A stretch of DNA of 64,000 nt from a virus. This document shows, one piece after another, positions 21,027 through 21,397 of this stretch; the first letter of the stretch is position 1; each line of letters begins with the position of its first letter. A program made the position numbers and the translations under genes. Location of the stretch: positions 64,001 to 128,000 of IMG/VR virus record IMGVR_UViG_3300045988_142085, one strand, 5' to 3'. A model generated the notes under the pieces. That model made no database searches, was not told the origin of the DNA, and worked only from the letters and a program-made list of their open reading frames with translations.

Positions 21027-21266
21027 ATTTTTATACTGCATTAAATTCTATAGCTCCAAAACCAAGAGAGCTTTGCAGATTTCTCATTACTTGTTTTAGC
21101 ACTATAATAATACAATTCTGCATCACAAATATTAATTGTTATGATTATTGCAGGATTTTAGTACGTTTTAATATTATAATAAACAATATAACTCTAAAAC
21201 TATTCGATATTCTGCTGTGTAGTCACCTTAATTTTAGTACTGTATCAAACTATACAGCTCTAAAAC
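21027..21266 (-). CRISPR. CRISPR-like mini-array 1: four 36-nt repeats (21231-21266, 21165-21200, 21093-21128 degenerate, 21027-21062) and three spacers (21201-21230, 30 nt; 21129-21164, 36 nt; 21063-21092, 30 nt)
   Basis: Minus-strand repeats: GTTTTAGAGCTGTATAGTTTGATACAGTACTAAAAT, GTTTTAGAGTTATATTGTTTATTATAATATTAAAAC and GTTTTGGAGCTATAGAATTTAATGCAGTATAAAAAT. The 36/30 periodicity and GTTTTAGAGC...AAAAC ends are typical of type II-A. Confidence 0.6.
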
Positions 21267-21397
21267 CTCAAATTTGCAAAATTAGAGCTATATTTAACAG
21301 TACTTTATAGAGTCTTCTAAGTTATCTTAGCAGACTTCTAAAGGGATAAAACTTAAGCCCTATACCGACTAATTAAAAATATGATCGGTTACAATTA
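21267..21397 (-). promoter_or_regulatory. conserved leader of mini-array 1 (~131 nt), containing an anti-repeat (ATATAGCTCTAATTTTGC) that pairs with repeat 1
   Basis: ~80% identical at both ends to the leader of array 2 (23795-23930). Ends ..AAATTTGAGG at the repeat junction. Internal TGCTAA-17 nt-TATAAA promoter-like spacing. Confidence 0.5.

Follow-up and report, generated by a model that had tools for sequence, protein, structure and literature searches.

What is a short CRISPR array doing directly upstream of a gene for a TnpB-family nuclease in a phage genome, and which protein reads it? The question is raised by a window of 64,000 nucleotides (nt), positions 64,001 to 128,000 of the virus record IMGVR_UViG_3300045988_142085; all coordinates given here are window positions. 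A preliminary description had recognized the array and its type II-A-like repeats and had offered three mechanisms: use of the host Cas9 and Cas1-Cas2-Csn2 machinery against competitors, production of decoy CRISPR RNAs (crRNAs) resembling the Racr anti-CRISPRs and, listed last, use of the RNAs by the adjacent TnpB-like protein. The evidence supports the last of these, contradicts the first and does not favor the second. It seems likely that the phage encodes its own TnpB-derived CRISPR system of a TranC or V-U-like kind and employs it against rival temperate phages. Judged from sequence, the locus combines features of type V and TranC systems, namely a TnpB-derived effector linked to an array, a T-rich protospacer-adjacent motif (PAM) on the 5' side with a proximal seed, a scaffold bearing an anti-repeat, and spacers that match mobile genetic elements.

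When re-read from the window, every coordinate and sequence in the preliminary description proved correct. In the order of transcription proposed here, the elements of the first locus are as follows.

21393-21267, minus strand: leader or putative omega-RNA-derived scaffold, 127 nt, with hairpins P1, P2 and P3 and an anti-repeat at 21304-21282; its 3' end, AAATTTGAG, abuts R1.
21266-21231, minus strand: repeat R1, 36 nt, GTTTTAGAGCTGTATAGTTTGATACAGTACTAAAAT; paired through its 5' half with the anti-repeat of the leader (helix P4).
21230-21201, minus strand: spacer S1, 30 nt, the presumed guide of the first, cis-fused unit.
21200-21165, minus strand: repeat R2, 36 nt, 27/36 identical to R1; the same sequence occurs in the related phage L002.
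21164-21129, minus strand: spacer S2, 36 nt, whose first 10 nt, GTACTAAAAT, copy the 3' end of the repeat; 34/36 identical in L002.
21128-21093, minus strand: degenerate repeat R2', diverged in its 5' third and repeat-like in its 3' two-thirds; conserved in L002.
21092-21063, minus strand: spacer S3, 30 nt, 30/30 identical in L002.
21062-21027, minus strand: repeat R3, 36 nt, 28/36 identical to R1; its duplex with the anti-repeat of the window leader has a predicted energy of -21.1 kcal/mol.
21026-20992, minus strand: tail of 35 nt between R3 and the start codon, 5' untranslated region and ribosome-binding site of the nuclease gene; 97% conserved in L002 and in the related locus L003.
19780-20991, minus strand: gene for a TnpB-family nuclease of 403 amino acids, the presumed effector, with its ATG at 20991.

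R1, R2 and R3 were grouped as one family (71-77% identity) by a repeat search of the window, and the array went undetected by Tandem Repeats Finder. Rfam searches at the gathering and E<=10 thresholds returned no match for the leader, the repeats or a trans-activating crRNA (tracrRNA). The sole match to an Rfam CRISPR direct-repeat family (DR9, 21631-21657, E 4.9) was rejected as an unrelated chance hit.

The 36/30 periodicity, which the preliminary description had allowed might be coincidental, is not, for the leader and array are kept upstream of the same gene in about 20 close IMG/VR loci while the spacers differ. These loci lie mostly on phage contigs of ~170-236 kb and encode nucleases that are 83-96% identical; every one of them has the same leader, followed by one to six 36-nt repeats with 28-31-nt spacers. 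More than 100 nuclease variants at 85-95% identity are found in the protein database, many of them on contigs of ~225-236 kb. Some spacers are held in common, as between L007 and L009 or the window and L002, and R1 of L009 is a hybrid of R1 and R2 of L007, which implies that spacers are lost through repeat-repeat recombination. Repeats within one array are 64-97% identical (mean 76%), and some 34-42 nt separate the last repeat from the start codon in roughly half of the loci, more where terminal repeats are degenerate. No close relative of the locus was found among the INPHARED phages, and a scan of IMG/VR with a loose leader pattern, whose gap range was too short for one leader subtype, gave mostly chance matches.

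The leader provides the first indication of how the array may be read. An alignment of 18 leader-plus-R1 sequences yielded an RNAalifold consensus of hairpins P1-P3 and a helix, P4, in which the 3' part of the leader (AUAUAGCUCUAA), an inverted copy of the repeat, pairs with the 5' half of R1. Across the 41 base pairs, 97.1% of the alignment cells are paired and 17 pairs have changed on both sides; none of 500 shuffle controls attained the observed pairing values, and only 26-51% of cells paired when the partners were slid. P4 itself (109-125:132-148) contains compensatory changes, including co-changes at the extreme 5' end of R1 (GGC:GCC in L002 and AGGAU:GUCUU in L003). Because G.U exceeds A.C by 76 to 12 in the leader structure, the leader RNA is likely to lie on the strand that is co-directional with the nuclease gene.

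These compensatory changes bear upon the proposal that the locus encodes a classical omega-RNA with the repeat itself as the guide, so that the nuclease would cut the CRISPR repeats of host type II-A systems as an anti-CRISPR. In canonical relatives the guide does directly follow the scaffold, and the first 13-20 nt of R1 are its most II-A-like part. However, the covarying 5' half of R1 is engaged in a helix and is not a free guide, the sequence flanking the first repeat of II-A arrays (TGAG) mismatches the T-W-Y-R motif described below, and spacers that match phages would have no explanation. This proposal is extremely improbable.

The ancestry of the leader is suggested by a covariance model built from leader and R1. 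The model matches both loci of the window. It also has a single match in each of 14 loci coding for the nearest canonical relatives, with proteins mostly 36-41% identical. That match (E 1e-4 to 2e-2 in one search and 1e-5 to 2e-4 in a second) always falls at the 3' end of tnpB, on the sense strand, which is where omega-RNAs lie. In the canonical relatives, GGUAAUUCC...GGGAAUAGAGGGUGCAGGUUUACACCC encodes the C-terminus of the protein (KVIPDAF...) and folds into P1 and P2, occupying the alignment columns that these hairpins have in the phage leader. Beyond P1 and P2, AUAAA comes next in both versions. In the canonical scaffold it precedes a short hairpin and then a small hairpin of UGAA/UUCA, after which the sequence diverges into guide or flank; in the phage scaffold it precedes the anti-repeat, which is joined to the repeat by a loop of 12-15 nt (..GAUUUGAG). 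Topologically, the phage version appears to be the canonical one with the guide-proximal hairpin enlarged and its 3' strand turned into the repeat. The model found no scaffold at the 3' end of the phage nuclease gene, and the next open reading frame (ORF) begins 3 nt past its stop codon.

The anti-repeat is predicted to accommodate the other repeats as well. Repeat:anti-repeat duplexes average -15.1 kcal/mol with the array's own leader, -13.3 with the leaders of other phages and -6.9 for shuffled repeats. An alternative design in which each repeat folds into its own hairpin, like that of a single-guide RNA, was downgraded, given that self-hairpins average -5.1 kcal/mol compared with about -15 for the leader duplex. 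Overall, comparative sequence analysis indicates that the "leader" is a structured RNA that is homologous to the omega-RNA of canonical tnpB relatives and carries an anti-repeat.

The region preceding the leader holds features of its own. A relatively G+C-rich structured element (21400-21764, minus strand; short form ~21400-21565) ends in a hairpin and U-tract before the leader, and related phages possess it in a short form of ~165 nt, in a long form of ~360 nt or not at all. Comparison of the two forms reveals compensatory changes, such as CCUAAGA...UCUUAGG in one and CCUGCA...UUGCAGG in the other, and the element has no match in Rfam; it may be a novel phage small RNA. In L004, L009, L010 and other loci that lack the element, an unrelated ORF ends in ...HQKM*, with its stop codon within the first bases of the leader (ATGTAAC). 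Canonical tnpB ends in a similar way, ...QIMKKV(GGTAA), and the ORF ending may be what is left of an ancestral tnpB copy that lay upstream.

A second leader and array, mentioned in the preliminary description as an array 2, lie 2.5 kb upstream of the first. The re-examined positions (23926-23702) bear out a leader, a repeat, a 30-nt spacer and a truncated repeat.

23926-23795, minus strand: second copy of the leader or putative scaffold, matched by the covariance model at 161.5 bits and alignable with locus 1; no nuclease gene adjoins it.
23794-23702, minus strand: second mini-array, with a repeat at 23794-23759, a 30-nt spacer at 23758-23729 and a 27-nt truncated repeat at 23728-23702.

At least nine related phages carry the second locus at the syntenic position, again with variable spacers. 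Two paralogous YopX-like genes (22169-22552 and 23260-23628) also occupy this region, the second of them directly downstream of the orphan array.

The candidate effector is a member of the TnpB family. Its 403 residues match the Pfam families OrfB_IS605 (E 7.6e-22) and Cas12f1-like_TNB, and PADLOC gives full-length matches to Cas12f (E 4.5e-26) and Cas12u3 (E 5e-23). A profile of the family, compared with the Protein Data Bank, finds both TnpB (8H1J/8EXA) and Cas12f (8J12/7WJU) at E 1e-7 to 1e-8; the protein is equally distant from the solved structures of either. The RuvC residues D193, E327 and D369 are invariant across the phage proteins and their canonical relatives, and the zinc-finger cysteines of the TNB domain are missing throughout the subfamily, canonical relatives included. 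With a dN/dS of 0.04-0.15 against nine relatives at dS 0.5-0.7, the nuclease is subject to purifying selection, and its catalytic triad is intact. An AlphaFold model made from a shallow alignment (>=85% identity) was unusable, with a predicted local distance difference test score (pLDDT) of 37. A search of genome contigs brought up nothing beyond relatives of 36-41% identity or short pieces of the C-terminus (Lachnospiraceae, Treponema, Konateibacter, Eubacterium), which give no clue to the host.

The earlier statement that the window has no cas genes holds for cas1, cas2, cas4, cas9 and csn2 among its 91 ORFs, while the adjoining TnpB-like protein itself scores on Cas12f and Cas12u3 models. 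The same 91 ORFs include no transposase family and no TnpA; transposon ends were not specifically searched for. The window contains one copy of tnpB, whose syntenic position is the same across related phages. In L088, a related phage contig, a second, different TnpB (17422-18510; 362 amino acids, HTH_OrfB_IS605) is encoded ~6 kb downstream of the array-linked one, and a tblastn search found no such second tnpB in the window.

The spacers indicate against what the system may be directed. Two concatenated sets of spacers had no match among the INPHARED phages at E<=10, and exact 22-24-mers of S1, S3 and the locus-2 spacer had no target in IMG/VR or the JGI metagenomes. A target family was reached through two overlapping spacers from different phages and different array loci, L003 (2836-2863) and L012 (516-545), which are offset by 9 nt and both target positions 719-756 of L089. 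This pair led to a 29/30 protospacer at the start codon of the tape-measure gene in a 32-kb viral contig, and the overlap indicates independent sampling of one target region. A spacer of another phage matched 31/31 in 11 further viral contigs, the longest of ~36-37 kb. When the loci fetched with that spacer were searched by mismatch-tolerant local BLAST, a target of S1 surfaced as well. The S1 protospacer lies in an integrase gene (PF00589), at L091 1204-1233 (28/30) and L095 12447-12476 (27/30), with the 5' flank TTTACG.

Altogether, spacers of at least 11 arrays match a single family of ~36-kb phages in local BLAST. Thirteen distinct spacers have protospacers in this family, eight of them differing at no more than four of 30-31 nt. 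When spacers were re-extracted automatically, 10 of 26 real ones found matches, compared with 16 of 1066 shuffled or reversed controls, which matched over only 15-20 nt. In addition to the integrase and the tape measure, the targeted genes encode a helix-turn-helix (HTH) repressor-like protein, TerS, TerL, an SPP1-type portal, a Mu-F-like head protein and a sigma factor. The target phages are temperate and have 36% GC, and their terminase shares ~65% DNA identity with those of Streptococcus and Clostridium phages. The suggestion that competitors are targeted is therefore upheld by the protospacers in these phages, and the spacer search proposed in the preliminary description succeeded for S1 and failed for S3, for which the searches run found no protospacer.

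Two other matches were discarded. The locus-2 spacer has a single outside match, to L109 at 25/30 in an aminoglycoside-phosphotransferase-like gene of 63% GC, which is probably due to chance, as a 22-mer match is by a rough estimate about what that collection would be expected to yield. The match of L003 spacer 1 to the window tnpB (18/19, 19885-19903) is coincidental; its real target is the start of the tape-measure gene. As for S3, its complete identity between the window and L002 at a tnpB dS of 0.58 suggests selection on the spacer or recent exchange.

The protospacers also bear on whether the region is still active. It could be a decaying relic or a cis-regulatory 5' region, either functionless or acting as a structured 5' untranslated region of the nuclease gene, with the spacer matches recording past activity. 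Degenerate and truncated repeats (R2' and that of locus 2) and the heterogeneity of the others would fit such decay, as would the shrinkage of arrays by recombination seen in L009, and the last repeat abuts the ribosome-binding site. Against this stand strong leader covariation across phages at dS 0.5-0.7, a nuclease under purifying selection with an intact catalytic triad, a conserved second locus that has no downstream nuclease gene to regulate, and near-perfect protospacers such as the one found at 31/31 in 11 contigs. A relic or regulatory region is accordingly improbable.

Which protein uses the spacers is best addressed by their polarity. The flanks and mismatches of the 13 distinct spacers were counted in the transcribed orientation. 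On the 5' side the protospacers share a T-W-Y-R motif, with T at -4 in 10 of 13, A or T at -3 in 11, C or T at -2 in all 13 and A or G at -1 in 12 (for example TTTA, TACG, TACA and TATA); the 3' flanks of the same 13 have no motif. For each of the eight strongest spacers, the flanking bases at -3, -2 and -1 are W, Y and R. Mismatches number 4, 8 and 31 at spacer positions 1-10, 11-20 and 21-31, respectively. Type II-A systems have the opposite polarity relative to the leader, with a PAM on the 3' side and use of the 20 nt distal to the leader. The 5' motif, the leader-proximal seed and the functional length of ~20 nt thus point to the arrangement of TnpB and type V effectors and not to that of Cas9. 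Moreover, nine protospacers are in sense and two in antisense orientation, so most of the guides would be unable to pair with mRNA, which points to DNA as the target.

The likeness to type II-A arrays, which the preliminary description had stressed, is nevertheless real. Of their 36 positions, the repeats have 19-26 (mean 23) in common with the S. pyogenes II-A repeat; shuffled controls reach 10.3 +/- 2.0, or 15.7 +/- 1.6 with the termini kept constant, and only 0.02% of the latter attain the observed value. The junction of leader and repeat, likened to type II-A in the preliminary description, reads ATTTGAG/GTTT exactly in the window and GATTTG[AG]G in related phages; it agrees with the junction published for group 1 of type II-A, which 87 of 167 loci possess (Van Orden et al., 2017; PMC5382924). 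Canonical omega-RNAs have nothing II-A-like at the corresponding position.

It might be supposed from this likeness that the locus is a viral mini-array whose II-A-like crRNAs are loaded with host tracrRNA into host Cas9 and directed against rivals, host Cas1-Cas2-Csn2 adding spacers at the junction, while the TnpB-like gene is a mere neighbor. The 36-nt repeats and 30-nt spacers, the identity of the junction to group 1, the mean of 23/36 with the S. pyogenes repeat and the targeting of rival phages by the spacers are all in keeping with this proposal. The resemblance of the target-phage terminase to those of Streptococcus and Clostridium phages is as well, since the hosts of such phages often have II-A systems. 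Mini-arrays that depend on host effectors are also already known from viruses (PMC11656645). However, the proposal requires a 3' PAM and a seed in the last 20 nt of the spacer, and what is seen is a 5' T-W-Y-R motif with mismatches concentrated at positions 21-31. The repeats of known viral mini-arrays equal those of the host, and here they average only 76% identity among themselves. In addition, leader and R1 covary as one helix, the leader is apparently homologous to omega-RNA, and neither cas9 nor a tracrRNA-like element was detected in the window. Use of the host Cas9 machinery is consequently quite unlikely.

Nor is a decoy well suited to these data. Here the repeats or the anti-repeat would titrate the tracrRNA, crRNAs or Cas9 of a host II-A system, like Racr or an anti-tracr RNA, and the spacers would be irrelevant. 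The repeats are indeed similar to II-A repeats, the leader anti-repeat (AUAUAGCUCUAA...) would pair with a repeat of the GUUUUAGAGCUAU type, and solitary Racr repeats are known in phages (PMC11656645). But the spacers match rivals well above chance, with a conserved 5' 20 nt and flanking motif, S3 is perfectly conserved despite a dS of 0.58, and Racrs are solitary, close mimics of the host repeat, in contrast to the heterogeneous repeats of this locus. A decoy as the main function would leave real, conserved and phage-matching spacers without explanation and is very improbable, although a secondary decoy effect may accompany the main function.

The resemblance could possibly have come about by capture of a II-A array, by use of the host II-A integrase or by convergence. 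A more specific hypothesis is a cross-type chimera: an array descended from type II-A, with its repeat, 36/30 ruler and junction, perhaps still a substrate of host Cas1-Cas2-Csn2, would be read by the TnpB-sized nuclease of the phage through an omega-RNA-derived scaffold that had evolved an anti-repeat. Such a chimera is unlikely. If true, the phage would be arming a type V-like effector by parasitizing the type II adaptation of its host, and the omega-RNA would have been caught between a fused (leader-R1-S1) and a split (R2 onward) state.

Based on these results, a mechanism can be proposed for the favored interpretation, a TnpB-derived system of the phage itself. The effector would be the 403-amino-acid RuvC nuclease, with its guide-RNA locus upstream and not downstream of the gene. 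The 127-nt leader would be a relocated omega-RNA scaffold (P1-P3) whose 3' part has become an anti-repeat; together with the 36-nt repeat this would rebuild the guide-proximal helix, and the spacer directly 3' of the repeat would serve as the guide. Leader, R1 and S1 would then form a natural single-guide RNA, while the repeat-spacer units after it, and likewise those at the second locus, would bind a leader anti-repeat in trans in the manner of crRNA and tracrRNA. The complex may recognize the 5' T-W-Y-R (TTTA-like) motif and ~20 nt matching the 5' part of the spacer, and then cut the DNA. The targets would be temperate phages or prophages of ~36 kb that share its host, and the outcome would be phage-phage competition. 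Binding of the RNA by the protein, pairing in trans from R2 onward, RNA processing and DNA cleavage are the steps that we infer.

Several observations weigh against this interpretation. The PAM-like motif was drawn from 13 spacers, and a few of these match at close to the level of chance. Were the array read on the opposite strand, the polarity would fit Cas9 with a 3' YRWA PAM, and such a reading is countered only by the G.U bias and the position of the leader. The likeness of repeat and junction to type II-A is left unaccounted for. Homology to omega-RNA is clear for P1 and P2 only, and the 3' module of anti-repeat and repeat has no canonical counterpart. A promoter scan found none at the leader, promoter-like sites being no commoner than in shuffled sequence, and a terminator-like hairpin ends ~7 nt upstream of the window leader. 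The second array stands without an adjoining nuclease gene, and the divergence of the repeats (mean 76%) and the degenerate units (R2' and truncated repeats) mean that some units may be dead. Lastly, the adjacency of nuclease gene and array is confined to one related phage lineage and hence is partly plain synteny.

Elsewhere in the window, other features were observed. About 1.1 kb downstream of the nuclease gene is a gene for a macro-domain protein (18173-18667, minus strand). It is the probable source of a PADLOC match to DarG, the DarTG antitoxin (E 7.8e-50; the per-family table names no ORF), and may be a counter-defense gene. Nearby are two paralogous small genes (16743-17306 and 17701-18183), whose proteins begin MIDKEALKKLIDP and MINKIILKSLIDP. 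A full-length OTKONC RNA (RF03053; 170 bits, E 2.8e-28) is present at 38792-38962 (minus strand), close to a tandem repeat of two 137-nt units with GCTCGCT motifs (40056-40324); the literature searched contained no mention of the OTKONC motif. A group I intron (RF00028, 94 bits) is located at 5555-5780 (minus strand), and an ORF resembling a LAGLIDADG homing endonuclease (8961-9914) is in the same region. The tail protein encoded at 61086-62279, of the baseplate Gp10_C type with YadA head/stalk repeats, might aid in predicting the host.

The locus is of interest for several reasons. For the origin of type V systems, a single transcript appears to hold both an unsplit omega-like guide and split units, which makes an origin by "RNA splitting" testable. 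For phage ecology, large phages appear to be armed against resident temperate phages with a minimal effector. For genome editing, the putative system combines a 403-amino-acid nuclease, a short 4-nt motif and a scaffold of ~165 nt. The II-A likeness raises the possibility that arrays or host adaptation machinery are borrowed across types.

Among known systems, TranC provides the closest parallels in several respects. TranC effectors are TnpB-sized, and their omega-RNA has separated into a tracr-like part and a crRNA part (Jin et al., Cell 2025, via PMC13565253). The phage locus shares a TnpB-sized RuvC effector with a short array, an omega-RNA or right-end-element RNA (reRNA) that appears to be functionally split, the lack of adaptation genes and a compact 5' PAM. 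It differs in that array and scaffold are upstream, R1 is cis-fused to the scaffold, there are two array loci, the repeats are heterogeneous, and the repeat and junction are II-A-like. The nearest case is CauTranC9, of TranC clade 9 (mean 414 amino acids), which according to a preprint comes from a Caudoviricetes genome and has an array that targets phages (bioRxiv 10.64898/2026.03.27.714800). It resembles the present system in its phage origin and its size (403 compared with ~414 amino acids); reported repeats of clade 9 are 38 bp long, compared with 36 here.

Types V-U, V-F (Cas12f) and V-U* (Altae-Tran et al., 2023; PMC10691335) likewise have TnpB-derived effectors, mini-arrays and a tracrRNA-like anti-repeat and lack cas1 and cas2. 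In conserved associations of Cas12 with arrays, however, the array is nearly always downstream of the gene (PMC10691335), and here it is upstream. The cysteine zinc finger of the TNB domain is missing from the protein as well. Canonical TnpB and omega-RNA of IS200/IS605 elements, such as ISDra2 TnpB (8H1J/8EXA), share the protein family and size, the homology of P1 and P2, a guide 3' of the scaffold, a 5' target-adjacent motif and an effective guide of ~20 nt. In contrast, the phage scaffold lies elsewhere than at the gene's 3' end, the array offers multiple guides and not one derived from the flank, and the targets are other phages and not the empty site of the element itself; neither TnpA nor ends of an insertion sequence were detected, the ends not having been specifically searched for.

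Viral mini-arrays and Racrs (PMC11656645) are also phage-borne and very short, with spacers against viruses of the same host. Nevertheless, the former have host-identical repeats and rely on host effectors, whereas this locus has heterogeneous repeats, its own candidate effector and tracr-like scaffold and a type V-like polarity; and unlike the solitary repeat of Racr, its arrays have multiple units with phage-matching spacers. The 36-nt repeat, 30-nt spacer, ATTTGAG/GTTT junction and repeat 5' end, GTTTTAGAGCT, are those of a type II-A array. PAM side and seed are opposite, though, the repeats are not near-identical, cas9, tracrRNA, cas1, cas2 and csn2 are absent from the window, and the leader is an apparent omega-RNA homologue. 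Finally, the miniature type V effectors of phages, Cas12j (CasPhi), Cas-lambda, the "hacker" Cas12p (bioRxiv 10.1101/2025.01.20.633832) and Cas12r of Thermus phages, are similarly compact and Cas12-type, have short arrays and no adaptation module, and are thought to target the nucleic acids of rivals. While those proteins have 500-800 amino acids and enlarged REC and WED domains, the putative effector described here has only 403, and its scaffold is still recognizably an omega-RNA.

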